A DNA stretch of 62,606 nucleotides from an uncultured bacterium (GTDB lineage Bacteria > Verrucomicrobiota > Kiritimatiellia > CAIQIC01 > Lenti-01), in contig CACXEY010000254.1 of assembly GCA_902766695.1 (NCBI GenBank), positions 1 through 62,606 on the forward strand. Reading direction: 5' to 3'. The stretch's first letter is position 1, and each line of letters begins with the position of its first letter. The notes beneath the pieces are model-generated. The model did no database searches. It had not been told where the DNA came from and saw nothing but the letters and a program-made list of their open reading frames with translations. This document shows positions 6,127 to 60,526 of the stretch, in pieces. The translations under genes were made by a program, and so were the position numbers.

Positions 6127-6136
6127 GCCCCCCCAA

Positions 6137-6217: not shown

Positions 6218-6227
6218 TTCCCATCCC

Positions 6228-37700: not shown

Positions 37701-40027
37701 CTGGTCACCTCGCCGCTGCTCGACCCTACCCCGGCCACCGCAGTCTTCCCGCTCGTGTACGTGATGGTCGGGCTTCCATGCCCTGCCGTCGCCGTCACCG
37801 TCACGCTGGAGTGGTCACCGTCCAGCGTCACCGACGAAGGCGAAAAGCTCAGCGTCTGCGCCGCCTTGTTCACCGTCAGCGTCGCCGTCACGTTGTCCGC
37901 CGCGTTCCACAGGCCGTTCCCCGCCTGGCTCGCCGTGATGGTCGCCGACCCCGCCCCGGCAATCGTCACCGTGCTTCCGCTCACCGTCGCCACGCTCGAA
38001 GGGCTGATGCTGTACGTCACCGTCCCCCCCTGCGCCGTCGCGCTCAGCGTGAACGTCGCGTCCCCGTACGTCTTCTCGACGTTACTCAGCCCCGTGATGG
38101 ACTGATTCCCCTTGTTCACCGTGATCGTCACCTCGTCCGTCCGCGCGGTGTAGCCCGTGCTCGCCGCCCGGGTCACGTCGAACACGAACTTCCCGGCCTT
38201 CGTCACCGTCAGCACGCCCGCGCTCGTCAAGGACCCCGTTCCCGTGGTCCCGGTCTTCAGCGTTGTCCCGAACGTGTACACCGCCGTCCCTGTCCCGTTC
38301 CCTCCGGTTCCCACCAGCGTGATCGTGCGCCCCGCGTACGTGTGCGTCAACTCCGTCACCGACACCGCCGTCGACTGCGGCACGTCCGCCGGCCTGTACG
38401 TCACCACGATGGACTTGCCGCTGATGGATTTCGTGAAACAGCTCTCCGACAGCCCCGAAAACGCCGTCGTGTCCAGCTTGACATGCCCCAAATCGGTAGA
38501 ATTGAAGCTCCCCTGCGTCGTCAGAATCGTCCATGTTGCCGTACTCCCCGAGTCGAACGATGACCCCGGCGTCAGCTTCAAATTAAAGTCCGAGCTGATT
38601 GCCCACCCACCGTCATTCATGGTGGTCAGGCTTTCGCTCACGTTCTGCCCCGTCGTTCCGACATCCACCTTGATGGTCGTCGACGCCTTGATGTTCATCA
38701 CCCCGACTTTGACCGCCCCATTCAAATCGATGTACGTCCCTGCCGTCGCGTTTGTAATGGCCAAGTTCGTCACAACCCCTGCCGACGTCAGCGCCAGCTT
38801 ACCGCCATTCAGGACCAGCCCCTGCCTGTCCGCCTTCTTCGTTAGGCTCGTCAGCGTCAACGTCCCCGCCCCTGTCTTGTACATTTCAGGTGCATCTACC
38901 TTGGGCTTCCAATTTGCAATCGTGATGTTCCCCGCCCCGCCGACCGTCGTCGACACCGTGTTCGAAAATGTCCCCGAAAGGTTCAGCGAGGATCCCGATG
39001 ACACCAGCAACGACCCTGCCGTGCTTTGGTTGTAAATGAGTCCACTCAAAGTGTTGTTCCCCGACGAACTCAAAATCGCACCCTTGCTGCTGGGCCCCAC
39101 ACCTTTGTACAGGATTTTCTCCGCCACGGTGATCCCCCCCGTCAGCTCCAGCTCGCCGCCCGATTGGATGGTCGTCATGCCCGCCCCGCTTCCCAGCGCG
39201 CTGTTGTTCGAAACCCGCAGGACGCCCCCTGTGACCGTGACTGCATTCGTGAACGTGTTCGCCCCGCTCAAAACGACCGTACCAGTTCTGGAACTCTTCG
39301 AAAGCTTCCCGACGTTGTTGGCGATCACACCGCTGATGGTAATCGTCTTTCCAGAGGCCGCATCCAAGGTCACATCTGCATTCAAATAGCAAGTATCGCT
39401 GAACGTCAAATTCCCGTTGTCTGCCCAAACATACTGGGAATTGTCGAATGAAACGGGTGCGGCGAACTCGTGTTTGACCGTCGCAAGGTTCTTTATGCCG
39501 TATTTGATGTTGATACCGCCATCGCTGCCCTTGTTGATGGTTCTGGCCGTCGATGCCCCTGATTCGAATTCAAGGTAATTAACTTTATACCATGCATCAA
39601 GCCACATGGTGGTCTGGGCATTGTTGTTGAAGTGGATGTCTCGGTAAGTGCTGCTGGCATCTTGATTGGCGGTAGTAGCATCAGGCCGCTTGTAATAAGT
39701 GCCGCCACCACCAGATCCAGTGCACCACGGATACGGATCCCAGTACCAATTCCCGGCACTCGGATCTGGCCTCCAATAAATTGTCTCTGCCTCTGCCTCC
39801 CTCGCGCCCCCCACCCACGCCCCGGCCACGACCGCCGCGACGGCGGCCCACCGCGCCACAAGTCCCATGCGTTCCCCGGGGGCTCTGCGTGTTTTCATTC
39901 CGTCCATTGTGCATTGTGCATTGTGCATTGTGCATTGCTCTTTGTGCATGTTCATCGTCTTTTCCTCCGTCGTTGCGGTCGTGGTGTGCATGTCGATTCG
40001 GCGAAAAACTTTGAAAAACCGGTTCAT
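16793..40027 (-). CDS. giant secreted multi-domain surface protein 1 (~7,744 aa): PATR beta-helix, Ig-like, many FN3, jelly-roll modules with Asp-boxes, LamG-like and cadherin-like Ca-motif modules, unknown C-terminal domain
   Basis: Uninterrupted minus-strand frame. Domain grammar is present throughout (see findings) and there is a signal peptide. The ATG at 40027 overlaps the DUF1016 stop (ATGA) and follows AGGAGG plus 7 nt. Alternative in-frame starts lie at 39955 (GGAGGAAAAGACG-ATG), 39907 and 39898. The ORF-track extension to 40981 is rejected. Confidence 0.9.
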   Translation of the reverse strand: MNRFFKVFRRIDMHTTTATTEEKTMNMHKEQCTMHNAQCTMDGMKTRRAPGERMGLVARWAAVAAVVAGAWVGGAREAEAETIYWRPDPSAGNWYWDPYPWCTGSGGGGTYYKRPDATTANQDASSTYRDIHFNNNAQTTMWLDAWYKVNYLEFESGASTARTINKGSDGGINIKYGIKNLATVKHEFAAPVSFDNSQYVWADNGNLTFSDTCYLNADVTLDAASGKTITISGVIANNVGKLSKSSRTGTVVLSGANTFTNAVTVTGGVLRVSNNSALGSGAGMTTIQSGGELELTGGITVAEKILYKGVGPSSKGAILSSSGNNTLSGLIYNQSTAGSLLVSSGSSLNLSGTFSNTVSTTVGGAGNITIANWKPKVDAPEMYKTGAGTLTLTSLTKKADRQGLVLNGGKLALTSAGVVTNLAITNATAGTYIDLNGAVKVGVMNIKASTTIKVDVGTTGQNVSESLTTMNDGGWAISSDFNLKLTPGSSFDSGSTATWTILTTQGSFNSTDLGHVKLDTTAFSGLSESCFTKSISGKSIVVTYRPADVPQSTAVSVTELTHTYAGRTITLVGTGGNGTGTAVYTFGTTLKTGTTGTGSLTSAGVLTVTKAGKFVFDVTRAASTGYTARTDEVTITVNKGNQSITGLSNVEKTYGDATFTLSATAQGGTVTYSISPSSVATVSGSTVTIAGAGSATITASQAGNGLWNAADNVTATLTVNKAAQTLSFSPSSVTLDGDHSSVTVTATAGHGSPTITYTSGKTAVAGVGSSSGEVTRGSTGYGNVTITATAAATDNYLGQTATCTVKVMGVRPSTSGSITSVTGVGVNQFTVAYSRGTGATHNVLLAKAGSSPTAPTDGSGPAAQTEASIAWGSAEEYPASSGTKALVHRAIASANIAVSGATPATHYYLALYGRTPNSATSANLKFSSYATTPATSDFWTLATEPSGQASGLTAGTVGSRKASMTWTAGSWAAASGETASLKTLLIVVPSGSSVTAPTDGVAYSAGDAIGAGTVAFAGAGTSAEVTGLTPEQTYTIYAYAYAEGGDGTTANYLATSPASRSITTIASQGPNVWATGVDGTSYLLNWSQLSSDSAGYDVQTGTSSSFSSSTVTETFDSDSVWANESSYPTAARNITSAGHVYTFSNTLGVSSANTCPRNNQSTTYDGEIRFSAVGSCIYTEPIYGEVTSVTTKMRAGGDGNNAKRHLDFSVSYDGGASWTKLDTYEPASQTAFSTFTYSTSSLKGGEQGVRLRWAKPDNNEYLAMLSEISYTYTPGTSGIPGYAKEVTGLTSGSTYYARVRKAPDGDWSDELGVKAGVRPNTVSASAVRNAVTFTWTDVQSGAVGYGVQVTKTAAPSTWADKSAGTAALALGSFGTKDWKYIGTTATTTSSTLSTAPGYASGHIPGVAGNGLESKSFPIAGMTGIRVSFTVASFNLGIGDGQLSDGTVEVYYQIDDGPWCYLGAAAPESTDVPTTAQFDVPAGAWGEGDRVAFKLVAPNAHAYGTAYFISPRLTNVKVSRLSKGSGDYSGTGTSESWTSYKTVEGTTSGTSYTVTGLTAGETVYFRVQALQGSAANPTAKSVWVEATGTATAYTAPGTPAASGILRNAMTLTWTAGDTTDLDHYVLQWSTSSTFASGVSSANVAAGTLTKSLTGLTASTKYYFRVKAVGTDSQESAWSSTGNATTAAYTAPSAITFSSVTRNSMTVSWTAGNTTDLGKYVLQRSTASDFSSGVTSYDVTGGTSQAITGLAASTKYYYRVKAVGTDGQESAWSPTANQTTSGFPGPATVAASGETRNGMTLAWDAVSGAASYNVEWTTCGLDSDTPVQEGDTCPSSTRAYDTHSATDWTYRKGYSSSAGYAAGAYPYWHSTFGHWLAGQYVNTTYKPGVETPALDLSDAASGYIEFAHRKANDGTNTLAKFSPVTLYYSLDGGAGWTNVSSCSEGTGSWVTKTIALPAVVLGRKNVRLQLRADKAAAYYDTSVSAYKPAGAGIKDIKVYKYRTGGDYECAATQSRNVPGTTTVLTGLAPETLYYFRVQAVGSGDGAGSTWTAGSSSTTPFNGPTGLAITEAGRYTLTAGWDAYAESGYTTQYEVQLTPCAKAGAEAATAGECPAQNLAFGTSATDWTYQREYSGSTASSYPKYENGVHKLWGQYSSTSIEPGILSPELDLAGYVSANVEFSHMYVNRSTMSEVALYYSLDEGANWTLVQETGTAAGATAATASSRSIPLPAEALAGGVKLLLRTKHATNYDLNPPNEDWRAQGASIANLKVTARGVGGGDYECGTATAIQGPQSSTSKIFSGLSAGGEYYIRVRTVLTPVGGGAAERSAWTEIPASTAVPQPPPEEIWGESIRQNHMTVAWSEAPGASAGTLYKYEVTKCGGATSTEVAAQETRTDGDLEEGVDDWTYTGGGTAPEATQQSTYGFLRETYPAWARLSENSIVLAGAGSPGIESAEFSTVGASAGTVTFLHGRWYNDGYLATAAVTLSYSIDGGDSWTDGPVQSATDISTAYATYSRSLALPSGALGHAHVKVRLEARAAADSVGTVTKPVGAALKKAKVTLTKQGGDYSGSGCVISSGTGLTADKLSAELEELEAGHAYYFHVAASDGVLVGGAPQYGAWTESMATTKSAPAAPASAWVVPESIGRHAMTVQWDAVADAETYVVKVYQGSSASGTLKQTIETASTSLTVTGLDAQRQYYYTIQSKADGESSSGTANCTGTTSASLAVTGFCVTNILDTSLSVKWDNVADTAYTLEVGPMTTDGATGALYETIECPATTLARSDKGNGWFYLGGNANYPKYYVKSSGTAAQKAEDQGHVLSYSSAGAPGIQSRWFSTFGAKSATIEFLHGRWFNDGKNSALQVFYSIDGGTTWTLAGDIASTANAVPGSAASGGEKTVTRFALPERALGQRTVAIRVQAPDAAAGGSYGYGAEIKDLRIKLEAYPQSASTFSGTVSGGIQNLSGLAIGRRYWFRLTATETYNSQTFTAEAVQTAATRQKTAGVVQSQGFEGAGENGALDTTAWGYDIKYNVVGTTTWRTESQRLSTDPEVKVVDGENPMYGDRALRMSGSAAAGTYGVVEFANKDFGAGHSENVVVTIPFAACDLAEGENLWVSYSTDGGTAWVAPEGLATLTKGGWTMGKIGRGGGDVMNQNWPYNRGTNSTTRPAGDAYSFELHGIRQLAVRVAFCGNSGGAKHYFYIDEVKLERLATPPTDVTASANTHGTVDLGWTPAGGQSVVVIRGQDMRNPPASLDLNSLPHGYEVVTNDTGGNYWVNTADPGVHATATDPGVTGGWKYFYYFYGALDNGDGTYTLSKECVQREVIVRGMVEAIASQGWDGWDVHPWGYKKGRTTNPGRAGDCGYWAYNQSGDTLPYEWAHFVEGSWEYDGQTGRNTSKGVVPSGVKDYAYYYGAGKTYGPAGRTDPDCTNQLGVSSYTNYFGTNCFRLSGGSGWTWYGPHTWTNNEGQVKTGTDIVINTNNPAIQFDTIDLSGYKNVEFSFHYAQTYSGGGNYMHVAISTNGNGADGTWMSYDNKNDGMWRQRTDTSRDYGLQLQTMTGDFSGGNVDFYDESRAPYGNPFVLQVPDAVTQLTVRLTFFDTTAVDQRKALIFVDEVRLTGEVAIEAPKPYISEIGKNQFMVHWEPVADADTYDVEVTEVCDESKIKLAQAFVVDGCPKDWEASSSGATFTKTASRLYASVSGTAHDHGLNLSGGSGALTSPEVGGTTNLQFYAKAYNASGSAKLIVEAKGDKDTEWEEIGSWTAAQLTGSWKGYTNSLPNRQWTQVRFRREGGSGTSDSIYVDDIEFHGEGVYTVAGVKSFPGVSATNQVVTGLASGKRYLAHVRAVGAPAGVVVRSAWGETADWTAGDFAVAADGFEMTRSTWGNPGSGIAVIAVNDGKAFSDVPAPTGTPAVGSAVGQGVVIARTTSAQSGAGFEHVVPYGSRTDAVDQKYVVYWKHGSYWEGRLETNVVLNTYVCAAADAFAVTNGTSMPATGDQAAFNTGKGWAGPWHVETVPWSGAWAGQETRNDSRPYGLLETNQLWGTGGNMLVLYPTNENKKVEIKRTLATPLSKSSEWWGMFTMKIYYSGPNKWAGIQLLDESGASKVSIGKLWNAKDSSNANEGKVIGFQQGSTTKASNYVLNDGQTCVVVFKWDGSKMWLKTFYRGSDTEPQWARTATFPGFDVSETLSMDDIHAIRLVAENGSGLLYPVWFDEIRIGSSWEELVGKEPVPPFPVATAHAVMDGKEMIRLDWVKPAAGTDTAPDPDVERPAATRVYVLEKNVNSPFTADQLAWKTHGVGESSEIGDAVVTLLYNGSGTELEHVVLPGTSHRYAFISYASGVYAESALEVSTDSNTGGPLTMDKYGETEYVNPFSYTNSFEVSGSGTHTEWRGGNGFTNTAGNTVHFWATGDGQNGTTANAATWTPVKPADAPAKMGTEIPNYKVSAGNVMKVSPSANTSASLGRTLAQDWGGEAGKTFYIAYRMAYTYDGVNKWAGLKLIDNSGSHRGVFVGKPGTSDSSKQNLLSIDPGGGLGIGFGNYSLNAGAGNAYVVVAKVQWTAADKVNVYAMAKYADGETEFPEEEPTTGWNAQWINMTFSGVHMIELLAGGTGSDVTPGDTYFDEIRFGGSWDDLLGPKVPTDVWMAGLSEDVFLGDYVVNNITSKPQGPGQSAKHLLSGAAEPSGAAWAAGVDAAWVRNITTETPPQTEWIATNQFKTTGTLYAYGSATGDGETVYSWQHGDDRYKRNTYTVAALPAPVLHATNDASYRVPLGWDRGSSGGRTFEEVMVVKYSSAYAANTISANNLKPEDGKAYYAGDVIYHSNPENYMTVIYRGTAQYYTNRPCSSHSYYAAYTVNNSYYSPRSAVADATPSNTGGDIDIDGDPTDWVGTPAEPWNSSIFSEGELIWTDKRGEERTDNPERCPSADITEFRVKADSTNVYFLLQLNGGTATMPTNAHVAVGLDTRLSTESTDLNWLADESYTFLGGAYYTNSPAFHYPKIQMAVHWVGGDRNEWQVELYDTDSASWHAPLWWKASSALDGSGNPVASATPCVEWVVPRNELGLDGVTGDAAVTGRFSVATFLNSGSWNNEAVGVVLIASNSCAAVDALAIAPYGSNDKDYALGAWDEGLKNNNVDFWMDARFGATALLSDTAPSTPANPEPANDGTGAGNPVLQWSNSTDAEGFVTGWLLEVADTPNFGGDGGHTENGPVLYRVNIEMTPELAAAIAATPSRKISFKPMTNCKEFWWRVRARDNAGQLSAATVQHYTVTGKQDNDGPVATLKYVGSQVGKFLGDSEYRAEVERNGEAYSILDSEFGGSSAEFGFVIEWYDINGVYATNHMRGWVNDYDGVDDCDIGPSKWPAGKVEGDYTWNILATNGDGTVFGRVSPNWDLMMVNTNRTSANPPSPLNITVHTSGGEKTLTWEHHGGTGEPELLIPDAMGEYQPAQGWVIQWGYDDAFLGVGTESGTTFSGQTLRAYDGGTEISCNGVQYLTNYVSGVFGLPEYDPEVDLYLTLSAEDCCTSDQWGEQPWDPWPPSTERDHQGSYRGLSCNEVNVLTGGWCADGPNPARNVTVNQLIKINVKDNDVVPPIASTERWAATAVDEDGTEFKPSMLVSTNNIAKSSANTTWATITGKLPRREGVQRDTMYQLTDAMMVGGTRPLSFFFNVFDDYIESGTQRGATQTTTPASTGHTLTNSAFVVKTWDPALNEGAGAWVASTENTGNFVADGSYISDMVHDGSGWHEAAGTKGTGPSTVLRWDFATSDINSLFGMTDILSYIGTHSDGVTNVVQLHAWDSDDNRANDQADAEITFGRLLFSDDDATAPEISRSNLLGTGTNMVKFGTLALDTFSKGDAIGSGSNPHYGALQAFEGMTLGTAQVVQDGSVAVKSKAANGTTGSATLYYTATENPGVAYMESGMNGASYLASSKYFEWVLGGTETAYWLADNLTFKSYVTAYGPTRYTLTVQGEVTETVYTPSASQKWTVWQNGAATSAELTATNQVALKGSSSVHTAAVQSVSIPLTSISSGTISYDAGARYNRTDNRTLKLQISLDNGASWTDVTTIKPSESAATGEQKAYVKNFSDIRISGSPLVPRTGQMLVRWYASNNEGVDSGVNGNAGFNLWNPKVTTVKGTAVETELGTVVVDKEENGEGQYFASTNLVSIVFSQSVEATGTQKKTFRLYGWRATGSVAEDEADDTFSGNGNWGINNLELHGILSGPKGQEVTDHDLNQGAWTNTLEVQDGLVTGYDTVRSGLWVASNSADNCHAWVPDFTVYYPAASAKEGAEFWSSNLVELAYAEAELASGGDPQFADDDGSWTLASGAEIVAGTTESRNWLSLPGGDSKAASASQTIVVAAPERGLEGVTVIVQAKVRSVLAAGADGAANGFTLGVDFQTSAGDTLSIGEEETFSATKAWREYTLGPVSVANSSVGKVAVSIAEETTAGTGLEVDSVVISVSAFAPMVNSAPGTGKNGEMVSAQLKVRTQGLSAETLAKGMPLSVKSGSTQPDNQHYKIVSRVYDYDHDRTADARAAAVTNAFWLYDNDEAAPQTGSQFGGPFGVKVNGTLLPTKQRINSGAASVWALSDHSIAEAAGSSANSKLGFALDYYDYSGWRVTDLQFRKLNPATGAEAGTTTVLSGGTVDAAGTLAGGYSRDAGNTGDLGEANVPSATVGWEQAVLDFYTLHAAEFASDAIVTNAVYAGVTDRDNDRAGDTLATGIAHVGNFRVMDQDVSAPHYRNASTSKFKGILVATNVADGATLQDLDSADYGHYALGGSLSAHNGSLDDIATRAFTIYDGELREVSASKQFAVTADLVDPSDRTSGRSNTGVKRGTAATEGASSALASSITLTNTYLAWETAATNGIVVSNALAHYQLPGTGWSSSDGQTKMAASVSFTTWTWDEFTYDDVGNLLPGGQDYRDLWLRIHAYDADADRQEDQKYAQLAGPKITVRDNDTLWPNPPTGLEVNGTPVTTVGEMTRETAPWTNNLGNVNVRFTAATDQDPTGLDTKKSGVVRYHLAGEDATITHTSTNAGKKITTSVDGEKLKANLGAVTMDQGFGKYQLFAVDGDNDRPGDGLASDPVDVPLAYDITKPTKIGYVSGGSPRRLTANPDNTDDPTTQFDLSWPIYGVGPDDPADPNYIETTYKASAYETLSPWYSYKIYFTNYEESAIASDDNPDVEAKSWVYQTFMSDPTAANYYTNWAFVMTNSPVQDPTAPKDTGTGRSTAYDSLGRVAANVGTTNQSVRLYDLDFDNHYIVIIVGVDKAGNEGPAGMWSWATNNTIKFAVTAGVVRTTAAISGMLESADLEDIGMAVPGEGAPSKAAVLHWLAAGQDAKTGEFKHAVNKQYDLIYRDASSFTEKGTEQWNMASTAGNSGTSKTNWNYQADEGLATPGRLRFYRASYTGRWQDTKPGTDEKQIPLASMEVYSMNNVVLSEGFNYVSLQGVPWTNTFRGVFGTDPSMWPAATNGAASDDDVTKVEFYSSGTTTMTNGSYFFAYDKKATEADKKFRWFDDKGADVTDKDLPANFFARPFGILLPKANITTNNGTVETNGWWKDHTELKSQYGRNRTVLAMLWHPIMQVPTNGVPVAATASTSSAKPGARDGTASKQVFQQTVVRGKGVYNLLSLNLPVAVHPSKLMLVEFDKETGEPTSGKMKAGNPWDATTDKLYVVDTETKEPRGDTTMYCDANGTWRYNKNRAEIASTDTPIHPNDMIVLISGKKEEGAGDTWNWTYSPEDFYQPPTRNMGR
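38600..39450 (-). other. autotransporter-associated beta-strand (PATR-type) beta-helix region of giant protein 1 (approximate limits)
   Basis: TGTVVLSGANTFTNAVTVTGGVLRVSNNSALGSGAGMTTIQSGGELELTGG...KTGAGTLTLTS...LVLNGGKLALTS. The phrase VTVTGGVLRVSNNSALGS maps to 39181-39240. Confidence 0.7.
39788..39898 (-). other. predicted Sec signal peptide of giant protein 1
   Basis: MKTRRAPGERMGLVARWAAVAAVVAGAWVGGAREAEA / ETIYW: a basic n-region, an Ala/Val h-region and an AEA cleavage-like site. Confidence 0.7.
39905..39939 (-). repeat. perfect tandem heptamer (plus strand cattgtg x4 plus cattgct; coding strand CAATGCA) inside the 5' leader of giant gene 1
   Basis: Read directly. It encodes QCTMHNAQCTM. 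Each unit carries an ATG, so ATGs occur in all three frames. Confidence 0.9.
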
Positions 40028-41118
40028 GGGCAAACCTCCTGGGCGGGGTTGTTCAGTGTCTGGCACGGATGCTGTGCCTCGAAAATCGCCTTTTGGGCCT
40101 CGATTTCGGCCCGGAGCGCCTCCGCGCTGGGAAGGACCAGCACGTATTTGGAGGCGAAAAGCTGCTCGCTCCCCTTGAGCACCGAATAGCGCGCCACGTC
40201 GGAATCCGTGTCCGCGCACAGGAGGATGCCGAGCGTCGGGTTGTCCCCCTCCCCGCGGCGCTTCTCGTCGAACATCCGCACGTACATGTCCATCTGCCCC
40301 ACGTCCTGGTGCGTGATCTTCGACGTCTTCAAGTCCACCAGCACGAAGCACTTCAGCAGGTAGTTGTAGAACACCAGGTCGATGAAATAGTCTTCCTTCT
40401 CCGTGTGGATCCGGTGCTGGCGCGCCACGAAAGCGTAGCCTTTCCCCATCTCCATCAGGAACTTGCCCAGATTGTCCAGGATGCGCGTCTCCAAATCGCT
40501 TTCCGTGAAGTCCGTCCGCGGCGCCAGCCCCAGGAACTCCGCCACCACCGGGTTCTTCACGAACTCCAGCCGGTCCTGCAACGGCGCCGTCAGCCGCCGC
40601 ATCTCCGCCTTCACCGCCCCCTTCGACTGCGACAGCAGCGTCCGCTCGTAGTACTGCGACGAAATGTTCCGCTGCAGCGTCCTGACGCTCCACGTTTCCG
40701 ACGCGGCCTCGTCCAGATACCACTTCCGCGCCTCGGCGTTCTCCACCTGCAGAAGCTTCAGGTAATGCGACCATCCCAGAAGCCCGCCGGATTTTGGCGA
40801 CAGTGTCTCCAAAATTGGGAAAGTGCGGTAAAACTGCACATATTTGTATAGGCTCCCGAAGTCGAACCCAGCTCCGTATTCTTCGGTCAATTGCGCCGCC
40901 AGCTCCTTGACAGCCTGCCGCCCGTATTCCGCCCTCTCCCCCTTCAACTCCTCTTCGGCGATGCGCTTCCCGAGCAGCCAATTCCGCTGCACCAGCGCCG
41001 CGTTGACGGCCCGGTACGCGCCCGTGCGCGCCGACTCGATGATTTCCCGCGCGTCCGCGAGCAACCCCTTGCCGGCGGCGGCCGCCGCCCGGACATCCTT
41101 CTGGAGCGTCCCGCCCAC
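40024..41118 (-). CDS. DUF1016 / YhcG-like PDDEXK-family nuclease
   Basis: N-terminal YhcG-type region (NAALVQRNWLLGKRI, GWSHYLKLL). PDDEXK core IDLVFYNYLLKCFVLVDLKTSKITHQDVGQMDMYV. GTG start overlapping the upstream TAG (TAGTG); its stop overlaps the next ATG (ATGA). Confidence 0.85.
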   Translation of the reverse strand: MGGTLQKDVRAAAAAGKGLLADAREIIESARTGAYRAVNAALVQRNWLLGKRIAEEELKGERAEYGRQAVKELAAQLTEEYGAGFDFGSLYKYVQFYRTFPILETLSPKSGGLLGWSHYLKLLQVENAEARKWYLDEAASETWSVRTLQRNISSQYYERTLLSQSKGAVKAEMRRLTAPLQDRLEFVKNPVVAEFLGLAPRTDFTESDLETRILDNLGKFLMEMGKGYAFVARQHRIHTEKEDYFIDLVFYNYLLKCFVLVDLKTSKITHQDVGQMDMYVRMFDEKRRGEGDNPTLGILLCADTDSDVARYSVLKGSEQLFASKYVLVLPSAEALRAEIEAQKAIFEAQHPCQTLNNPAQEVCP

Positions 41119-41231
41119 TATGCGACCTCCGCCTCCCTCCGGGCCTCCGCGTCTCCGCGCGGAGCGCTCTCCGCGTCTCTGCCTATCCGCGCCTCCGCGT
41201 GCCCGAAAACCTTCTCAAAGAATGCGTTCAT
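41118..41231 (-). CDS. 37-codon leader ORF (MNAFFEKVFGHAEARIGRDAESAPRGDAEARREAEVA)
   Basis: Not in the ORF track. Its ATG lies 3 nt after the A1 stop, in the same conserved AAGGAGAATGAGAG-ATG context as the giant gene 2 start. Its first residues resemble the giant-gene N-termini (MNRFFKVF, MSAFSNNF). Confidence 0.35.
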   Translation of the reverse strand: MNAFFEKVFGHAEARIGRDAESAPRGDAEARREAEVA

Positions 41232-41253
41232 CTCTCATTCTCCTTCCGCGCCC
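41219..41253 (-). promoter_or_regulatory. conserved 35-nt cassette/leader junction (stop + Shine-Dalgarno + ATG), copy 1
   Basis: agaatgcgttcatctctcattctccttccgcgccc is identical, except for one base, to 58679-58713. Confidence 0.8.
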
Positions 41254-41447
41254 CGGCGGGCCGAATCCGTCTCCCCGTTTGGCAGTTTGGTGGGGTGGTG
41301 GTTTGACGGCACCCCTGCCGCCTGCCGGGCCAACCGCTCCGCACGGTGCCGCCGCAGATACTCGCACACGCCGTGGAGGGTTCCCCCGCCCTTTTCCCAG
41401 AGGCGACGCCGCGGAGCCATGATTTCCTCGTAGATTTCCCTATTCAT
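41235..41447 (-). CDS. small PIN-associated protein A1 (70 aa), unknown family; putative antitoxin/partner
   Basis: MNREIYEEIMAPRRRLWEKGGGTLHGVCEYL.... It is a paralog of A2 and A3 (MN..DPV..E....R.K.WE..GGT..G). Its start overlaps the PIN-1 stop by 8 nt (ATGAATAG). Confidence 0.5.
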   Translation of the reverse strand: MNREIYEEIMAPRRRLWEKGGGTLHGVCEYLRRHRAERLARQAAGVPSNHHPTKLPNGETDSARRGAEGE

Positions 41448-43024: not shown

Positions 43025-43264
43025 GCCGCCCCCTCCCCTCCGCGCCTCCGCGTCTCCGCGCGAGCCCTCTCCGCCCCGCCCGATCCCCTCCGGGCAAAGT
43101 CCATGCGGACAAGACCGCGCGGCCCTGTCGAGGCAAGCAGTTTTGGAATAGGATTGGGCATGGACTCTCTCCATGTAAATTTACCCCCTCCCCCATCCCC
43201 GCGCAACCCCGGCCCGCCCCCCACGCGGTAAAACGCTCTACCGGAAGGCGCCCTGCGGGCGCAG

Positions 43265-43481
43265 AGACGAGTGACGAGAGACGAGTGACGAGTTGCGGTG
43301 CGCCCGCTGCGCGGGCGGGATGGGAGGGAATGGGGCGCGGCTGGAAGCCGCACCTCCGGAAGTGGCGCGGAACTTCATCCACAAGTAGGGCGGAGCTTCC
43401 GGGGGTGCGGCATCTTGCCGCGCCTCGGCACGGCGCGCCCGAAGGCGCGCCCACCGCATCTTGTCACTTGTCACTTGTCAC
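43265..43481. repeat. imperfect inverted heptamer arrays flanking a GC-rich palindromic segment, between the giant gene 2 stop and the PIN-2 start
   Basis: (WGACGAG)x4 at 43265-43292 and (TTGTCAC)x3 at 43461-43481. Between them lie short palindromes such as gcgcgcccgaaggcgcgc. Confidence 0.6.
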
Positions 43482-43526
43482 TGCGCGCCCGCAGGGCGCG
43501 TCGCCGCGGCCGTGCGGCCGCCCCCC

Positions 43527-55500: not shown

Positions 55501-58500
55501 CGGTAGTTCTCCCGGCCCGTCGCCCCGTTGTACGCGTACGCCGCGAAATAGTAGTGCGTTCCCGGCGTGAGGCCGCTGACCGTCACCGTCGTCCCGCTCG
55601 CCCCGCCAGTAGACGCGTACACCACCTTGCCCGCCCCAAGCGACGACGACGAAGCGCTCGTGAAATCGAGATTGGCCGTGTACGTCGTCCCGTCCGTCGG
55701 GGCCGTGTAACTCGGTGCCGACTCGCTCTGGTAGGCCACGATCAGCGTGTACCCCGCGCCGCTGGCCCGCGTCAGGTTCAGCTTGATGGTGCTGTCCGTC
55801 CTGCTGTTCACGCTCAGCGTGGGGGAAGCCGACGGCTCCGACGCCAGCGTGTACCCGTTCGCCGTCGCCGCCGACGAATACGCCAGCGAATTCAGTGCCG
55901 CCGTCGCGTTCGCCGTCCCCTTGTAGGCGTACGCCCGCACATAGTACCGCGTCCCCGCCGCCAGCCCCGTCACGTCCACGCTCGTCCCGCTCCCCACGTA
56001 CACGATCTTCCCGCTGCCCAGCGTCGACGCGCTCCCGTACGCCGCGTTCCCCGTGTACGTCTTCCGCGCCGTCGGCGCCGTCGTCGGGTCGCTCGTGTAC
56101 ATCACCACCATCGTCCCCGCGCTCCCGCTCGCCGCCGACCAGCTGACGTGCAGCGTGTTCACCCCGCCCGGCTGCGTCACCGCCAGCGCCGTCGGCGCCC
56201 CCGGCGCGCTCGCCGTCGTCCGGAACGTCGCGTCCGCCGTGTACCCCGTCTTGCCCGCGTCGTTCACCCCGTACCCCCGGTAGTGGTACACCGTGTCGGC
56301 CGAAAGCCCCGTCACCGCCTTCGTGTACGCCCCCGCCGCCGGCGAAGCCACGTTCGCCGTGCTCCCGTAGCTCGTCGTCTTTCCGTACTGCACCCCCAAG
56401 GTCGAGATGTTCGGCGACCCGATGGCCCCCAGCGTCGCACCCAGCGTCGCACCGCTCGACGAGAAGCCCGTCGCCGTCGGCGACGAAAGTGTCGGAGTCA
56501 CCCCGTTCACCGTCACCATCACGTCCGTGTACTGCTCCGCGTACGGGGCGTCCGCCGCCTTCGTCACCCGCACCTTGATCGTTCCGCACGCCGTCACCGT
56601 CAACTTGTCCCCGCTGATCGTCCCGGCCCCCGTCCCGCCGCTCTGCACGCTGTAGCTGAACGCCCCGCCCACGCTGCTGCCGCCCACCGTTCCGCCGTTC
56701 CCCACCAGCGTCAGCGCGCTCCCCGTGTAGTCGTACTCGTCATCAGCCAACCCCACCGCCGTCGGCGTCGAAAACGTCGCGTCGGGCGTGTAGGACGTGC
56801 CCACCCCGTTGATGGCATACCCCCGGTAATGGTACGTCGTGCCCGCGGACAGCCCCGTCGCGCTGAACGTGAACGGCGTCCCCGTCGTCGGCGCCCCCGT
56901 CGTATTGAATTTCAGGGTTGCACTCGTCGTCGGGGCCGCGCTCGTCGACACCACCACGCCGTATTCCGTGATCGTGTCGTTCCCGTCGCTCGTCACCGTC
57001 GCCCCCAGCGTCGCCGTCGTCGGCGCGATGTTCGCCGCCGTCGGACTCGCCACCGTCGGCTCCCGCGCCGCCGCCGTCGGCGTGAAGGGGCCGTAGGTGT
57101 CCCATCCGGTATCGCTGGTGCTGGTTTTGGCGCGCGCCCTGACGTGAATGTAATACGCCGTGCCGGTGGTAAGCCCGGTTTTCGTGATAGTGGTGTTGTT
57201 GTTGACCGCAGTGGTGCAATCGGTACTTGCCGTGTGGCTGGAACTTGTGGTGACAGTGTAGTGGTATGCCGTGTTGTCCCCGTTCCCGTTCGGGTTTACT
57301 TTGAAGGTGACGCTGGTCGCATCATAGGCAACATCGGTGATGGTAGGGGCAACCGGTTTCGTCGTTGCACTAATGGTGGTATCCGCCGTGCTCCCGCCGG
57401 CCGAAGCCCTCACCGTAAAGTAATACAATGTTCCCGGAGTGAGGGAACTTGTCTTTTTGTTGGTTCCCGGAGTGATGCTGGCGGATGGCGTTGCAGGGTT
57501 GGAAGTGCCGTATCCGTACGTGTGGGTAGTGGCAGCGCCATTCACACCTGTTGCGGCCAAAATGGTAATGTAGTCCGTAGATCGCGCCACAACCGAAACC
57601 GAGGGAGCCGTCGGCAGCGTCGTCACCGTCTCCGTGACCGTCGAGCTGTTGTTCCCTCCCGCCGTCGCCATCGCGGTGATGGTGTACGTCGTCCCCGGCG
57701 AAAGGCTGCTGACCGTCACGGCGGTTCCCGCCGTGCAGGCCTCTGTGGGCGTCCCCGAGCTCGTGCCCACGATGTACTTGTACGTCGCCGCGCTCCCGTT
57801 CCCGTTCGCGTTGACCGTGAACTTGACGCTCGTGCTGCTCGGTGCCGAAACGCTCGTGATGGTCGGCGCCTTCGGCGATGTCGTTCGTGTCGTGTTGCCG
57901 CTAGTGGCGCTTGAACCTCCCGCCGTGGCCGTGGCTTTGATATAATACGTCGTCCCTGGTGTCAGACTGCTCTTCGTCACGGCCGTTCCCGCCGTGCAAG
58001 CGGTGTCCGGCGTCCCGGAGCTGCTCGTCCCAAAATAGTACTTGTACGTCGTTGCACTCCCGTTTCCGTTCGCGTTGACCGTGAACTTGATACTTGTGGA
58101 ATCCGAGGAATTCACCGTGATGGTCGGTGCCGTCGGCGCCGTCGTGAAAGAGGCGTTGGGATTGTTATAGGCATAAATATTCCCATTATTCCAATCATCC
58201 CAACCATGGAAATAGTATTCAACCGTTGTCCCAGGAGGAAATGCGCTACTGGGCGTATACTGCCAAATCGAGTTCCCGTCATCGTGCTTGATGTAGCTCA
58301 TGCTGTGGGTACCCCATGAGCCGTCGTTGATACCCACTTCGGCATGCAAACCCGAATAGTCTTGGTTCATCGCAATGGTGAAGGTTCCCTTGTCTCTTCC
58401 ACTATACGTCGTATAGCTACCGAAAATACCCATCCAAGATGGGAACGCCTTCGCCACACCCGCGCCCCCCAGCAGCGTCCCGGCGGCCAAAATCCAAGCG

Positions 58501-58691
58501 GCGGCGGCGGCGGTCCACCGTCGTCCCGAGCGCACCTTCCGCGATTGGGCATTGAGCATGGAGCATGGTGCATGGATGGAAGTGGATTGAGCCTTCATGT
58601 TCGTTTCCTCCGTCATGGCGGTGGGTGGAATCGTGGGATCGTTGAATCGTTGGATCGTTGAATCGTTGAAATTGTTCGAGAATGCGCTCAT
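43527..58691 (-). CDS. giant secreted multi-domain surface protein 2 (~5,054 aa), paralog of giant protein 1
   Basis: Uninterrupted frame with a signal peptide. There is an N-terminal beta-sandwich-like domain and more than 15 FN3-like modules, followed by a part collinear with giant protein 1. ATG 58691 lies 3 nt after the antitoxin stop and follows AAGGAG plus 8 nt. Alternative in-frame starts are at 58616, 58598 (GGAGGAAACGAAC-ATG) and 58559. Confidence 0.9.
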   Translation of the reverse strand: MSAFSNNFNDSTIQRFNDPTIPPTAMTEETNMKAQSTSIHAPCSMLNAQSRKVRSGRRWTAAAAAWILAAGTLLGGAGVAKAFPSWMGIFGSYTTYSGRDKGTFTIAMNQDYSGLHAEVGINDGSWGTHSMSYIKHDDGNSIWQYTPSSAFPPGTTVEYYFHGWDDWNNGNIYAYNNPNASFTTAPTAPTITVNSSDSTSIKFTVNANGNGSATTYKYYFGTSSSGTPDTACTAGTAVTKSSLTPGTTYYIKATATAGGSSATSGNTTRTTSPKAPTITSVSAPSSTSVKFTVNANGNGSAATYKYIVGTSSGTPTEACTAGTAVTVSSLSPGTTYTITAMATAGGNNSSTVTETVTTLPTAPSVSVVARSTDYITILAATGVNGAATTHTYGYGTSNPATPSASITPGTNKKTSSLTPGTLYYFTVRASAGGSTADTTISATTKPVAPTITDVAYDATSVTFKVNPNGNGDNTAYHYTVTTSSSHTASTDCTTAVNNNTTITKTGLTTGTAYYIHVRARAKTSTSDTGWDTYGPFTPTAAAREPTVASPTAANIAPTTATLGATVTSDGNDTITEYGVVVSTSAAPTTSATLKFNTTGAPTTGTPFTFSATGLSAGTTYHYRGYAINGVGTSYTPDATFSTPTAVGLADDEYDYTGSALTLVGNGGTVGGSSVGGAFSYSVQSGGTGAGTISGDKLTVTACGTIKVRVTKAADAPYAEQYTDVMVTVNGVTPTLSSPTATGFSSSGATLGATLGAIGSPNISTLGVQYGKTTSYGSTANVASPAAGAYTKAVTGLSADTVYHYRGYGVNDAGKTGYTADATFRTTASAPGAPTALAVTQPGGVNTLHVSWSAASGSAGTMVVMYTSDPTTAPTARKTYTGNAAYGSASTLGSGKIVYVGSGTSVDVTGLAAGTRYYVRAYAYKGTANATAALNSLAYSSAATANGYTLASEPSASPTLSVNSRTDSTIKLNLTRASGAGYTLIVAYQSESAPSYTAPTDGTTYTANLDFTSASSSSLGAGKVVYASTGGASGTTVTVSGLTPGTHYYFAAYAYNGATGRENYRATATTCDGYTFSTEPAAAPEIAITANATGTLTLSITRASGSGYTLIQANAANSFTAPADGTGYTANARYGSGTRIDSKGYVVYAGSDASTTLEVTGLSAGTRYYFRAYSFNGSGGAANYYTTAYGSANGYTLANPVTVASATADGKTMVRLSWTKPSGASGVMVVDNGTTAPTQGSTYTVGSTTLGGHVIYRSTGTSLEHVVASGSTHTYKIYAYSSANAYSAVLEKPVTTGSFGAEEIVDTFSYTNGVSLNGLNGEHGWSGAWDTGATTAPTIVSQSGSDIPVFPNYTEYPDNTGNRIKTSLGEANWQTEATRDFTAVSSGAIYAAAILSYQYEGAKKWAQIGLGNGSGVAIKAGHIWSSSADYHLGIDAYDHKEYSGSFEINPYQWDTDNEYLVILKYEFSTGKISVKGYYHGAAVPEGEPAANLWDVTYTVPSGSRPGSLSRFGLLAGATDGGAVGDVYFDEVRVATSWEALLGGTVAVPENIAELTAAADGKELVRVRALAPANARQIVFIAKSGGTLTTLSTTEQTLKSRAPGATAGNAEVIAVLDATAGSYCTADHVVATGSQHGYFAYAKNSTEYSPSYTAATGNPVETGSYDASEYLDTFSYTNGTTEASSGNSWKGGQGWGANWWHTDAGTWTAVRPTEIASTVNIAGTIANSTAVGNAVKLTNPGEGGAGTLERTTGGDAWGGGYNNTFYVAFRMAYSWNDPNRWAGLKLIDTTDGSKGVFIGRTMKDDTGASVKHSKLGIEAATSSGGTPSVGSAASGTLYALNDTGGANNAYLVVARVKWTSTAHATVDAWSYKVEGGTPLPTTEPSGNGMAHWEGAYLANVRVIQLQAGSIGTDQIGDVYFDEVRFGSKWEDLLGGVPPEFVWLDGQTTTAYRGDWVTNAVKSRPVGDRQSAQSLLTSSDSPAASAFSAAVGATYFGREEGDTVTVWHGLHQITSVTTPPLYGFGAVSGGGTAVYSMDHSDTAQRKHTYNLSVLPKPAAFSAESGGATKINLTWTPATAGGRTFDEVMVVRFATAGASTQTEAHLHPAQGTAYTVGDTFKYGSYTATVIYRGTGTGFTDTRLTPETTYYYAAYTVNNSYYSEPPSGGGAGRLNANATTAEGSSGTMPEVNGDGSDWTGAPAVAWNSSDTSDNEFVWNDKKGDLRSNTDDCYSADIDEFRVKADGEWVYFLLRLNGNVPAGKSVDLHKTYVSVGVDTRLSEGSTAMNWLGDESATELGGAYHGTAAERYASRQMAVHYVGGSENTWQVEMYAEDGARWYEPPTEGWQAAAAGTTDPCVEWRVSRADLGLGASGTAVTTGRFSVATFVNAQGWNQDTKATVDIDPGKSAAVDAMEIAPYGVNDKDANLGAWDEGLKDKTVNFWADVGFDKDGVVPNGLPNEPGFSGADTGHGSPTLNWTASTDTDAKGFVTGYLFELAEDSATLNGRDGGTENGSVLYRINLKGADNTSYRPQTTAAQFWWRVRARDNGGQLSAGTIRRYSVEGQKDMDGPKPELLYVGTQVADFLANTPDPETGIGYRDEVEAEGDALAVVDSVYSEGSKPTFGFVLQWSDDAGVYATNRSWDSSYTKTTRYDARVSQGLGTDGYTLGGGAGAFTWNILGEKGDGSPFGRVSPNWDLMLVDTKHTATFTGPSGWSTSGGYVWKRGASYKKTADTSVAAGKDYYTESGGTYTKVANPSGKNPSAEGWYEFLGWTYTKLSASESGLTSYYKMASGAEPNLQETGIHWVYEAHLELPTEEDPDKKIVTEGWTHVYDKDLPFLPSQTLWDTTATPNANLATCITNFVSQAFKLPAYDPDVSLYLTVSAEDGNTYGNGNTVPDGWIDNWYDDTPEGGVSHAHYSADTAESSGSCNDGPAYARNITTNRLILIPVRDDDSAGPEAATTAWAGANDGEPFAPSLVIATQAVTKAQAASWSAMYTNQKLLPRLDGTGQGVTYQLTDAMLGAPLTFLFNVYDQHITSGLKYGTAASESVKTWTWTNTAFRTRSWNSTGYPYSAVVSPGAANPKEQGWYVLAGGKYVPAEDTSVQAGTTYYTRSEDGWVTSEENVDKFNSDKSTIKYYKDDTKLHGPGTGDGTILAWEFGELTEASLGHLFGVPNVLDYIGHHSDGVTNLVQLHAWDCDNDRTGDQTEAEITFGTLMLTDDDATEPTSPGYALLGSGTNYVDFGALASWEWSTSGKPASWSTNTGLKGIDATEMSAWSVGSSGDTAITGDSVKWTERASSVPEGQDWSAMSRRYMSLEGGMQGATYQTAGGAKYFQFDVCGENGARWTADTLQFDNRVTAKGPTLYTLTVQEAANVTTLAAVTADGQKDPAWNVSGGLFEKANGILRFTLESTGGTASLASPSFQPNSNGRAMTRVQYRVGRIGGVKDGATLTVGYRIGSGTRTVVKTHASADFAESAANKFANYEVVSFDLPTDQAGDFTVTWEASGINGSQGFLLTDVSVVMQNSFNTEHPLVQDLLVEKAVDSSTDGSQETIKNVVMSWAGTENAEGTTWRYRLYAYGADGTGNWGINKIKLLGITMSPRGMDVTDGDLRHATWVNSLEVVDGEKSGWDTEKSGLWLKGDNAPAYVISYPEADAAGRAGTAVASGTFAYKDGKIRKAAYSVLPDGTFEADPTAWTLSGATIGTGSGTRERVLKLAGEDSAVSSATKGFDVSLGSIAAADVSGVTVSGGFEAKASVAEGSGGVNGLTVTVRLKDAGGNVLLAKTFEYAPVAAWRQLEIGPWTADNALVRKAEAEIAQTTAEGTELLVANVALQLATWGAPTGDFDNGEPGAKLELQTQEVAAGKTLKLSSELTGEGSKEYVLASTVHDYDRDRTDDALAVTIATGFELHDDDTQAPSLGAKFGGPVGMRLGNRSGLPYNASGTDVQVVVTDHQMDAAKRDGQSLAYLDIDGYDQSGWTTAALTLNYTEGGSAKSLAYDGADVTEGAAGLPSATNTFHYSLSTLWANTFVKNQFAAYTANMTVNATLTDQDDDRADDSLDTVSQLGFLKFMDNDTTAPAMRTSGSLKGMFIATNPPSGSIETALSGVSNKDWSAKSEYEVLTLTASDTASERLQLIYDGELCRSAPFYLMANVGDALQSGTGVSISGLQRGNAVSKSIQNGFNDTIAVSNTTMVLSNSATIVTNLATHFNEGYSSAFKTTRGGTAAAPQTWYWPTGMTTNEVGFLLPPESTSLDFRVLVEAFDSDTNRPSDQAHARLEDPTLRIRDDDTTAPQAPASVWLNGDAVASGEITRDNAPWKQSLSSVTVAWTEAVDPEPAGFGTAGNDIKVAGIAGYRLVAPGTTPGVAEGTDLTGTTTNTAEHKVTKTLTGLAIDQGFGNYQLFAVDKDADRAGDALAGAAANVPLALDFTKPTAVALPGGHGAGASTDAVDDPTTQMDITWTPSGVGPDDPTGDKTNYDKIPDAVKADAKAKGRAATDILSPWRTYKVYYREYDPQAVEAQAASEEMSAAQIILRDYVEADTFGSEAAGWLAVTNDAPIADPSTTQRKYSGLDEVSTPSVRVYDLDFDREYLFVVVGVDKAGNEGPVNDSSWATNNTIKFAVTQGLVRASADIAADIPASGDTGMKPINPQAKRGAALYWMAAGQKDGVGKVSKEYDLIYRDAPSFTEEGDEGWNLVGTVKTNWNYQTDGLDTVNDNLRFFRASYKGRWQGEKPLASEEVYSMNNVVLSEGFNYVSLQGVPYTNTFAGVFGTDTDMWPPNADSPASTNGAVVIEFYTAGDADHVRGSTKEQYFFASDGKWWKCENNAAVEDVTTKVLADHFFMRPFSINLPSGKKADGTDLPWWTEHNDPSITATKGTNRLNAILWHPILQVPPTNEVVAVASASTSSAKPGGRDGTASGALVFRQSVTATKGVYNTLSLNLPVSVHPKQLRLVATNAAGVPQPGRMKAGNWVDADKLYVIDTATKEIREKSTMYCDAEGTWRYNKNRLEVTGTPIHPNDMLVLISAGGNGEKGATVDWVWTYSPTDFYKPPTRHMGR
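58446..58559 (-). other. predicted Sec signal peptide of giant protein 2
   Basis: MLNAQSRKVRSGRRWTAAAAAWILAAGTLLGGAGVAKA / FPSW. Confidence 0.7.
58547..58574 (-). repeat. degenerate heptamer array (coding strand CATGCAC CATGCTC CATGCTC AATGCCC) in the giant gene 2 leader
   Basis: Plus strand gggcatt gagcatg gagcatg gtgcatg. It occupies the same position relative to the signal peptide as the perfect heptamer array in giant gene 1, with an ATG every 7 nt. Confidence 0.75.
58628..58667 (-). repeat. tandem octamer array (RRATCGTK x5) in the giant gene 2 leader
   Basis: gaatcgtg ggatcgtt gaatcgtt ggatcgtt gaatcgtt. It encodes FNDSTIQRFNDPTI if translated from 58691. Confidence 0.85.
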
Positions 58692-58713
58692 CTCTCATTC
58701 TCCTTCCGCGCCC
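58679..58713 (-). promoter_or_regulatory. conserved 35-nt cassette/leader junction (stop + Shine-Dalgarno + ATG), copy 2
   Basis: agaatgcgctcatctctcattctccttccgcgccc; one mismatch to 41219-41253. Confidence 0.8.
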
Positions 58714-59733: not shown

Positions 59734-59997
59734 GCCTTCGCCGCTCCCTTGCGTGCAACGGTTTTCCCTTGCGCGGGCGTCTTCCGCGTCCGCATTCCAA
59801 TCATTTCGGGGCCACCATCCATGTCCCATCCGGGCGCACGCCAAGCGCCGGGGGCCCCGCGCGCGGGGCTCCGGAAAAACGTTTCGACTGCAAGGCAACT
59901 AGACATGACCACTCCATTGCATACTGTACCCCTTCTCCGCCACCGATTGCAATCCGCCCCCGCCCCCGCCGGTAAACCGCTTTACCTGCGTCTCCGG

Positions 59998-60526
59998 TGA
60001 CGAGTGGCGAGTTGGCGAGCATCCCCTTCCCTGCCCACCGGGAATCGCAAGGTTTTCGCCAGCGAAGCCGCGGGCGGATGCCCCGCCCGTTTTTCCCTTT
60101 CCCTCCCGCCCGCGTTGCGGTCGCACCCCGGCTCGTCCCGCCACTCGCGATATCAAGGAAAACATGTGGAACATCCCCATGTTTTCCACATGATTACGCC
60201 CATGAACGTTCCCACCGCGCCCTTCCAACACGGCCCCGCGCCAGAAACGCACTCTCCGCCGGCTTTCCGCTGGTAGGGCGGGCAGTCCCTGCCCGCCGGA
60301 GACCGGAACGCCGAAGGAGGGCACCGGGAATTCGCGGACGCGTGTATTCCGTTGGTACAGGATGGATTGCATCCTGGCGAATTGCATCCGCGCCCCCGAC
60401 GGCATCCGCTTGCACGTTCCGGTTTCCGGCGGCGAAGGGACTCGCCGCCCTACCACCGCGCTTCGCGCAAGGAACGCTCTCTCCGCCGGATTTCCGCGGA
60501 TAGGGCGGGCAGTCCCAGCCCGCCGC
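59998..60526. repeat. repeat-rich non-coding region: heptamer array, hairpins and three TAGGGCGG-type palindromes
   Basis: tgacgag tggcgag ttggcgag (59998-60019). 60024-60060 is a copy of 15304-15340, and ccactcgcgatatcaaggaaaa (60141-60162) is a copy of 2098-2120. Hairpin ggaaaacatgtgg..ccatgttttcc. Palindromes at 60277-60297, 60428-60450 and 60502-60526. 60370-60450 is an inverted copy of 15139-15215. Confidence 0.75.

Follow-up and report, generated by a model that had tools for sequence, protein, structure and literature searches.

The giant gene 1 leader

The window analyzed here, a stretch of 62,606 nucleotides from an uncultured bacterium of the Kiritimatiellia (contig CACXEY010000254.1), carries two giant genes, gene 1 and gene 2, whose coordinates are read on the minus strand. 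Our subject is the leader of these genes, the segment between the stop of the upstream gene and a signal peptide, which contains short tandem repeats with units of 7 or 8 nt. What is new in this analysis is that four homologous leaders, in three genomes, follow one common plan.

The gene 1 leader begins with a Shine-Dalgarno (SD) sequence and ATG 40027, whose bases (40027-40025) overlap, as ATGA, the TGA (40026-40024) of an upstream gene encoding a YhcG/DUF1016 nuclease of the PDDEXK type (Pfam E=1e-50). The public gene call also starts at 40027 and gives a product of 7744 aa. A second SD-ATG pair lies within the leader, at ATG 39955. Both pairs, AGGAGG + 7 nt + ATG and GGAGGAA + 6 nt + ATG, had been picked out in a sequence-only reading of the window and are found where it placed them. 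As it also held, they are in frame with two further ATGs: the codons at 40027, 39955, 39907, and 39898 share one frame and are 72, 48, and 9 nt apart. ATG 39898 overlaps a TGA (39897-39895) of the +1 frame.

A tract of identical non-triplet units starts 18 nt, or six codons, past ATG 39955, inside the likely open reading frame (ORF). The perfect tandem (CAATGCA)x4 reported earlier does consist of four units, but they occupy 39937-39910, and the limits first given (39905-39939) were wrong by a few bases; a fifth unit, CAATGGA, follows at 39909-39903. Four 14-mer matches are observed in this array, compared with none in 100 dinucleotide-preserving shuffles. Leader lengths are measured to an anchor codon pair, CGG TGG, which encodes the RW that opens the hydrophobic stretch of the signal peptide. 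The predicted signal peptide, read by eye, is MKTRRAPGERMGLVARWAAVAAVVAGAWVGGAREAEA with an n-region KTRRAPGER, and cleavage is predicted before the following E (A-E-A/E). A search of Rfam (E<=1) over 39600-41400 matched no known RNA element.

Four homologous leaders with a common plan

Giant gene 2, in the same window, was said in the sequence-only reading to have the same layout, and its elements are all present: an SD-ATG at 58691, GGAGGAA with ATG 58598, ATG 58559 in the same frame as these two, and heptamers with the units CCATGCA, CCATGCT, CCATGCT, and CAATGCC (58575-58548). Its predicted signal peptide, likewise read by eye, has the n-region RKVRSGRR, the h-region WTAAAAAWILAAGTLLGG, and a cleavage site A-K-A/F. 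The other two leaders come from different genomes. One is in the metagenome contig JAEEGG010003551.1 (L037), which is syntenic with the gene 1 unit: there, a giant gene's 3′ end is followed by a PIN cassette (88% identity), the leader, and a mosaic giant gene, and YhcG is absent. The other, G001:C104, belongs to a genome (G001) congeneric with the window's own assembly (G000) and sits downstream of an antitoxin gene of 97% identity; the exact antitoxin protein has no database record.

All four leaders consist of a strong SD-ATG at the stop of the upstream gene, an N-terminal motif, spacers made of arrays, and a Sec-type signal peptide. The distance from the upstream ATG to the anchor is 174 nt in gene 1, 171 nt in gene 2, 321 nt in L037, and 192 nt in G001:C104; every one is a multiple of 3, and none of the leaders has an in-frame stop. 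The spacers themselves differ. L037 combines GAGTGAC heptamers with the CAATGCA heptamers also present in gene 1 and the AACGATYC octamers also present in gene 2, while the leader of G001 has the octamers GGAGGCGC and CAAACCAC, which are free of ATG. The motif, M-N/S-A/R-F-F/L-x-K-V/I-F/L, is present in five copies, so that MNRFFKVF, singled out earlier as a noteworthy N-terminus, turns out to be a real conserved motif with the counterparts MSAFSNNF, MNAFLKMVF, MSAFLKTIL, and MNAFFEKVF, the last in a remnant described below. It was not found elsewhere in G000. Thus, the earlier view that the architecture is conserved rather than accidental is borne out by its recurrence in four leaders of three genomes, in frame every time.

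The closest comparison is that of the window with L037. Gene 1, gene 2, and L037 share a conserved block, ACGGAGGAAA[AC]GA..ATGAA, at the internal SD. Between window and L037, no difference at all is seen in a 75-nt stretch that takes in the internal SD with its ATG and the heptamers with their 4+1 units. The adjacent part, coding for the signal peptide, has 9 differences in 104 nt. Over the whole leader and signal-peptide cassette (window 39795-39983, L037:6832-7020), identity is 92.6% in 189 nt, and homology ends at 39795, not reaching the predicted signal-peptidase site, which is 7 bases further on, at 39788. Beyond it, the mature N-termini are unrelated. The cassette is more conserved than the proteins behind it, which points to a shared 5′ module; on this alignment, it looks like one and the same module placed in front of different giant genes, and such a module may help giant genes swap segments. 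Residues 1-100 of the 7744-aa product, used as a protein query, retrieved only the product itself, and searching 25 relatives for the pattern of the internal SD block gave no more homologs.

In both giant genes, the first 350-390 codons (38885-39955 and 57429-58598) score poorly in the codon model of the genome and were trimmed by the gene caller; these N-terminal parts may be a recent acquisition or may have an atypical composition. For genes of this kind, the start codon and N-terminus given by a gene caller need care.

An insertion in the gene 1 leader

In the YhcG region (window 40024-41231), the YhcG gene has a version of the leader start on either side, MNAFFEKVF on one and MNRFFKVF on the other, and both ends of the gene are stop-start overlaps, TAGTG and ATGA. 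A conserved 28-nt start block (GGAAGGAGAATGAGRGATGARCGCATTC) lies upstream of YhcG at 41247-41220 and opens a remnant ORF. YhcG is thus an insertion into the gene 1 leader. In G003:C150, the same YhcG gene has another downstream neighbor, and its homology with the window does not extend past about 40072; hence, the AGGAGG-ATG at 40027 belongs to the leader and not to an ancestral YhcG. The counterpart of the remnant ORF in G003:C150 has an in-frame deletion of 48 nt (six octamers, or sixteen codons), with otherwise identical flanks.

Table 1. Features of the two leaders in the window (TRF, Tandem Repeats Finder)
Feature	Position	Strand	Basis or remark
Shine-Dalgarno AGGAGG, upstream start of giant gene 1	40035..40040	-	7 nt before ATG 40027
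Upstream start codon ATG (MNRFFKVF...)	40025..40027	-	174 nt 5′ of signal-peptide anchor, same frame, no intervening stop
Internal Shine-Dalgarno GGAGGAA	39962..39968	-	6 nt before ATG 39955
Internal in-frame start codon ATG (MNMHKEQ...)	39953..39955	-	sequence reading
(CAATGCA)x4 perfect + CAATGGA, gene-frame translation QCTMHNAQCTM	39903..39937	-	TRF score 69
Predicted Sec-type signal peptide, gene 1: n-region MKTRRAPGER, h-region WAAVAAVVAGAWVGG, c-region AREAEA	39788..39898	-	read by eye
37-codon remnant of original leader start (MNAFFEKVFGHAEAR...), TAG overlaps YhcG GTG	41118..41231	-	truncated by YhcG insertion
Gene 2 upstream start AAGGAG + 8 nt + ATG 58691 (MSAFSNNF...)	58689..58705	-	3 nt past antitoxin TGA
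Gene 2 octamer array (AACGATYC)x5, in-frame translation	58628..58670	-	TRF / sequence reading
Gene 2 internal GGAGGAA + 6 nt + ATG 58598	58596..58611	-	sequence reading, conserved block
Gene 2 degenerate heptamers (C[CA]ATGC[ATC])x4	58548..58575	-	substitutions only, frame kept
Predicted gene 2 signal peptide SRKVRSGRRWTAAAAAWILAAGTLLGGAGVAKA	58446..58544	-	read by eye

Is the leader translated?

The long frame is open in every leader, but is it read by ribosomes? The reading that we prefer, to which we give about an even chance, sees in the leader a modular pre-sequence, padded with repeats and translated from two nested starts, and neither an untranslated region (UTR) nor a dedicated switch. 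Translation would start at the strong SD-ATG that abuts or overlaps the upstream stop (40027 in gene 1; 58691 in gene 2), which on balance we favor as a site of initiation, and there would be a second initiation at the in-frame internal SD-ATG (39955; 58598), which is probably a genuine start. The product would begin with the short conserved motif, followed by low-complexity spacers encoded by 7- and 8-nt arrays of the type that populates the non-coding DNA of this genome, and the Sec signal peptide would export the giant body, with cleavage being probable. Since the unit lengths of the arrays are not divisible by three, selection would have to act on total leader length to hold it in frame, and it would also purge in-frame stops; the arrays, at present with three to five copies, would act as fixed sequence. 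The extension may serve coupling or export. The anatomy of the leaders, their fourfold conservation, the frame and stop statistics, the membership of the arrays in a genome-wide repeat class, and their stability between lineages are observations; actual translation of the long frame and the choice of a dominant start are inferred.

The frame statistics are as follows. The chance that four leaders out of four would be in frame is about 1/81. In frame 0, the GC content of third codon positions (GC3) exceeds that of first and second positions (GC1 and GC2) in all four, and the codon score of frame 0 is the best of the three forward frames, again in all four. In the (GAGTGAC) array of L037, the two units that would place a TGA in frame read AGA and TTG, and the three out-of-frame TGAs are intact. 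The indels observed keep the frame, both the 48 nt that separate G000 from G003 in the remnant ORF and the 3-nt change in length between MNRFFKVF and MNAFLKMVF. The leader of G001:C104 contains no ATG, GTG, or TTG from the octamer array to the hydrophobic core; therefore, its array is translated if the gene is expressed. SD motifs precede 43% of the predicted starts in the genome of the window, against 9.5% at a control position, and are thus in use there.

Several observations weigh against translation. Per codon, the leader frame scores -0.05 to -0.17, far under genes (+0.47 +/- 0.18) and no better than the top end of the distribution for intergenic frames (-0.36 +/- 0.14). In three of the four leaders, another forward frame likewise lacks stops, so stop-freeness alone is weak evidence. 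Upstream of genes genome-wide, arrays show no in-frame excess (71/139 open in frame 0, vs. 87 and 70 in the other frames), and arrays in this genome are thus normally untranslated; the in-frame constraint is specific to the giant-gene leaders and is not a general property of arrays upstream of genes. Moreover, the leaders hold remnants of an intergenic AT-rich repeat (TTTTCCAAYGATTGGAAAA-like), which is typical of non-coding DNA, and an extension of 45-107 residues ahead of a signal peptide is unusual.

It is possible, though rather unlikely, that the leader is untranslated, with the true start at SD-ATG 39955 or at ATG 39898. What lies upstream would then be 5′ UTR or intergenic DNA into which repeats have drifted, with a fortuitous open frame, and the arrays would at most provide the ribosome with a CA-rich, unstructured stand-by or enhancer region. 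The intergenic-like codon score and the non-coding type of the repeats fit this proposal, as does the leader RNA, whose predicted fold has no more structure than shuffled sequence (z=+1.1). The perfect conservation of 75 nt around ATG 39955 would suit a translation-initiation region. Comparable arrangements are known elsewhere: in G001:C53, a similar octamer array is clearly 5′ of an SD-ATG; in metagenome-assembled genomes (MAGs) of Clostridia, (CAATGCA)n stands directly ahead of TAAGGAGG; and the TAACTGA heptamers of Beggiatoaceae lie directly 5′ of starts (PMC4679880). However, a fortuitous frame does not readily account for an upstream ATG that is in frame in four cases out of four, for frame-keeping indels, for the selective loss of in-frame TGAs in L037, or for a peptide motif that is kept despite a 3-nt indel, and the missing start codon in G001:C104 leaves no site for initiation between the octamer array and the hydrophobic core.

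Translation of the long frame would give these giant surface proteins a pre-sequence built from non-triplet simple repeats, with the frame held by selection. A translated repeat leader of this kind would stand between the neutral heptamer repeats found throughout the genome and classical, repeat-driven phase variation.

Copy number and phase variation

A 7-nt unit inside a reading frame raises the question of a contingency switch. The sequence-only reading had argued that gain or loss of one unit would uncouple the upstream starts from the body of the gene, and that an ATG in frame would always be regenerated. The arithmetic holds in simulated copy numbers: with 4 or 7 units, both upstream starts are in frame; with 3 or 6, both end at the TGA that overlaps ATG 39898; and with 2 or 5, both run out of frame. 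Whatever the copy number, two in-frame ATGs remain, 45 and 54 nt 5′ of the CGG TGG anchor. Phase variation is thus arithmetically possible, but it is unsupported: the available data do not bear out the heptamers as a purpose-built, frame-tolerant switch. They belong to an ordinary, mostly non-genic repeat family of the genome, they are replaced by ATG-free octamers in G001, and they are present in only four copies, the same number as in a diverged lineage. The array has 4+1 units in the window, in its ENA twin, and in L037; a Logan contig (ERR3211459) ends inside the array.

We consider it improbable, then, that slipped-strand mispairing of the 7-nt units, or of the 8-nt units further upstream, uncouples the SD-ATG starts as a phase-variation switch, giving full expression, reduced expression (by re-initiation at ATG 39898 via ATGA, or at the ATGs of the array), or no giant protein. 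The non-triplet unit and its position within a likely ORF, six codons past ATG 39955, are what such a switch would need, and the simulation does give three distinct outcomes, including the stop that overlaps ATG 39898. Octamer arrays of the leader family also vary in length among close relatives (48 nt; 5 vs. 7 units). Even so, the change in length that was observed is a multiple of 24 and keeps the frame. L037 has an identical copy number and sequence although the adjacent signal peptide is about 9% diverged, the gene 2 array has decayed through point substitutions and not through indels, and another heptamer array is nearly unchanged between G000 and a 97%-identical relative. In other bacteria, similar arrays are in frame within essential genes, where frequent slippage would be lethal, and this disfavors the switch.

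Known loci with short tandem repeats are precedents for such a switch. CTCTT repeats occur in the leader peptides of Neisseria opa genes. In Haemophilus influenzae, CAAT repeat tracts occupy the 5′ coding ends of lic1A, lic2A, and lic3A (PMC2651432). As in the lic and opa loci, the repeats studied here are non-triplet, follow nested in-frame starts, lie before or in a signal sequence, and encode a hydrophilic peptide. Tracts of the lic and opa type, however, are long (7-51 units, the range in known H. influenzae loci) and hypervariable, whereas the four perfect units of gene 1 are short and stable and are made of a unit that is mostly non-genic genome-wide. The hmw1A and hmw2A genes of H. influenzae are preceded by 7-, 8-, and 9-nt repeats (Dawid et al. 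1999, as summarized in PMC2651432). There too, two paralogous, very large adhesin-type genes have 7-8-nt arrays just ahead of the coding body. According to that summary, the hmw arrays have 13-38 units, lie some 100 bp upstream, within the promoter or the 5′ UTR, differ from strain to strain, and tune transcription. In contrast, the arrays of the giant genes have 4-5 units, are apparently inside the reading frame, and are constant between lineages.

Relation to ESPR and protein export

The sequence-only reading had loosely likened MNRFFKVF to ESPR (extended signal peptide region), a conserved extension of about 25 residues directly ahead of the canonical signal peptide (PMC8151025) in substrates of type V secretion. 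We find it very improbable that the leader N-terminus is a divergent ESPR. There is a resemblance, in that very large secreted proteins carry a short conserved hydrophobic or aromatic motif ahead of their canonical signal peptide, as ESPR proteins do (PMC8151025, PMC2805444), and one weak PATR match was obtained. This match reaches 20.2 bits against a cutoff of 27 bits. The profile search with PF13018, run on the first 200 residues from ATG 40027 and on 197 residues from ATG 58691, gave no match at E<=10 for either N-terminus, and membership in the ESPR family was rejected on this negative test. Pfam assigned only fn3 and related folds to the two giant proteins, with no autotransporter barrel and no two-partner secretion (TPS) domain, nor any other type V domain. 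The extensions, 43, 50, 92, and 49 residues to the n-region, are two to four times longer than ESPR, and, unlike its conserved block, they are variable and repeat-encoded beyond the first ~9 residues.

It is tempting to speculate that the extension might nevertheless be a functional analog of ESPR and pace the export of a huge passenger, a role that is conceivable by analogy only. A twin-arginine translocation (Tat) motif (TRRAPG, GRRWTA) was also considered and dropped because the G001 leader has no RR.

Heptamer and octamer arrays in the genome

The repeats of the leaders belong to a genome-wide population. The G000 assembly (3.04 Mb, 67.5% GC, 318 contigs) was scanned with TRF at a score of at least 40 and compared with a gene set called on GC3 and codon usage (2445 genes, 84% of the genome). 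Arrays of period 7 (139) and period 8 (147) far outnumber those of period 5 (3) and period 6 (45). Period-7 arrays fall into few families: AAGTGAC (31), ACGAGTG (30), AAGTCGC (19), and AAAAGTG (12) together make up 92 of the 139, and AATGCAC, which is equivalent to CAATGCA, accounts for 5. Among the 55 perfect heptamer arrays, 35 have three copies and 20 have four, and none exceeds four full units. Most of the period-7 arrays (121/139, or 87%) are outside predicted genes; the spacers that hold the non-genic arrays may be convergent, divergent, or tandem, and the arrays occur in either orientation. The mean GC content of the units is about 50%, against 67.5% for the genome. Further arrays in the window are at 573-602, 6138-6216, 41136-41199, 43037-43061, 43263-43293, 43460-43482, 58628-58670, and 59997-60019. 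The other CAATGCA arrays of G000 are not adjacent to giant genes. Each of the three genomes of the genus has CAATGCA arrays, and a search of 58 other relatives found no such array.

With its many arrays, few families, non-coding bias, and small preferred copy number, G000 fits the 5-11-nt class of long simple sequence repeats (LSSR), or short tandemly repeated repetitive (STRR) sequences, of heptamer type. Heptamers are dominant in this class (Mrazek 2007, as cited in PMC4679880), of which TAACTGA in Beggiatoaceae (PMC4679880) and GGGNATC in Xanthomonas and Nostoc (PMC4692102) are examples. The likeness extends to the dozens to hundreds of short arrays, the excess in non-coding DNA, the preference for about four units, the frequent location next to starts or stops, and the patchy phylogenetic distribution. 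The present genome differs from the TAACTGA and GGGNATC cases in its units (AAGTGAC, ACGAGTG, AAGTCGC, CAATGCA, and others), its phylum, and an equal abundance of octamers, and in having several arrays strung together within a probable coding leader. A Kiritimatiellae-type genome thereby joins the poorly understood lineages that are rich in heptamer arrays.

The region 6100-6260 of the window, with inverted heptamer arrays between comEC and pilD, the prepilin peptidase gene, allows a comparison across relatives. It is almost identical in the 97%-identical relative (G001:C72), whereas in an 80%-identical relative (G002:C129) the arrays are swapped for unrelated octamers of the ACCTAGAT type. 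Since these arrays are kept in the former and replaced in the latter, arrays turn over between species and not between close strains.

Other repeats were seen in the same scans. TRF periods 22 and 31 (88 and 55 rows) correspond to a tandem AT-rich palindrome, TTTTCCAAYSATTGGAAAAA, for example at C264:9900-10000, which looks like a binding-site array or a promoter element. The starts of the giant-gene leaders and the AACGATTC octamers resemble pieces of this palindrome. Dispersed intergenic repeats of ~60-120 nt occur at window 43333-43424, L037:3500-3990, and L037:6700-6765; copies of their families, at 75-95% identity, are scattered by the dozen over different G000 contigs, and the families are similar to miniature inverted-repeat transposable elements (MITE) or repetitive extragenic palindromes (REP).

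CAATGCA arrays in other bacteria

Exact (CAATGCA)x3 is found in more than 120 MAG contigs of Bacteroidota, Bacillota, Planctomycetota, Acidobacteriota, Chloroflexota, and Pseudomonadota. The unit is free of stops in all six frames, and many copies of (CAATGCA)n are in frame, as NAQCTMH, within conserved genes, among them those for GyrA, ThrRS, RecN, CoaBC, an ABC ATPase, and an M16 peptidase; in ThrRS, the array is placed in a loop of variable length. One Bacteroidales MAG has 91 pattern matches, compared with 0 for the reversed control, and in the same MAG the reverse strand, (TGCATTG)n, often forms the hydrophobic core of a signal peptide, e.g., MKKTLLFVLCIVHCALCI (..LLCIVHCALCI..). In scans of viral contigs, CAATGCAx3 was present in 11, and stop-free controls of the same composition were present in 2, 2, and 73, the last mostly from one metagenome. 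Since arrays of other heptamers are also common in viral contigs, we do not claim that CAATGCA is unique.

One might imagine that an as yet unknown, unit-specific process, acting across phyla, lays down these 7- and 8-nt arrays, and that in this genus the translated pre-sequence has become a multi-state device, in which a change of units would select among a long, coupled product, a short one from the internal start, one re-initiated via ATGA at 39898, and none. We regard this combination as quite improbable.

A Phycisphaeraceae contig (L074, CAYWRO010000126.1) carries, in succession, GCGCAGAG octamers, (CAATGCA)8, and (GAATGAC)4. The unit types of this contig match those of G000 despite the different phylum.

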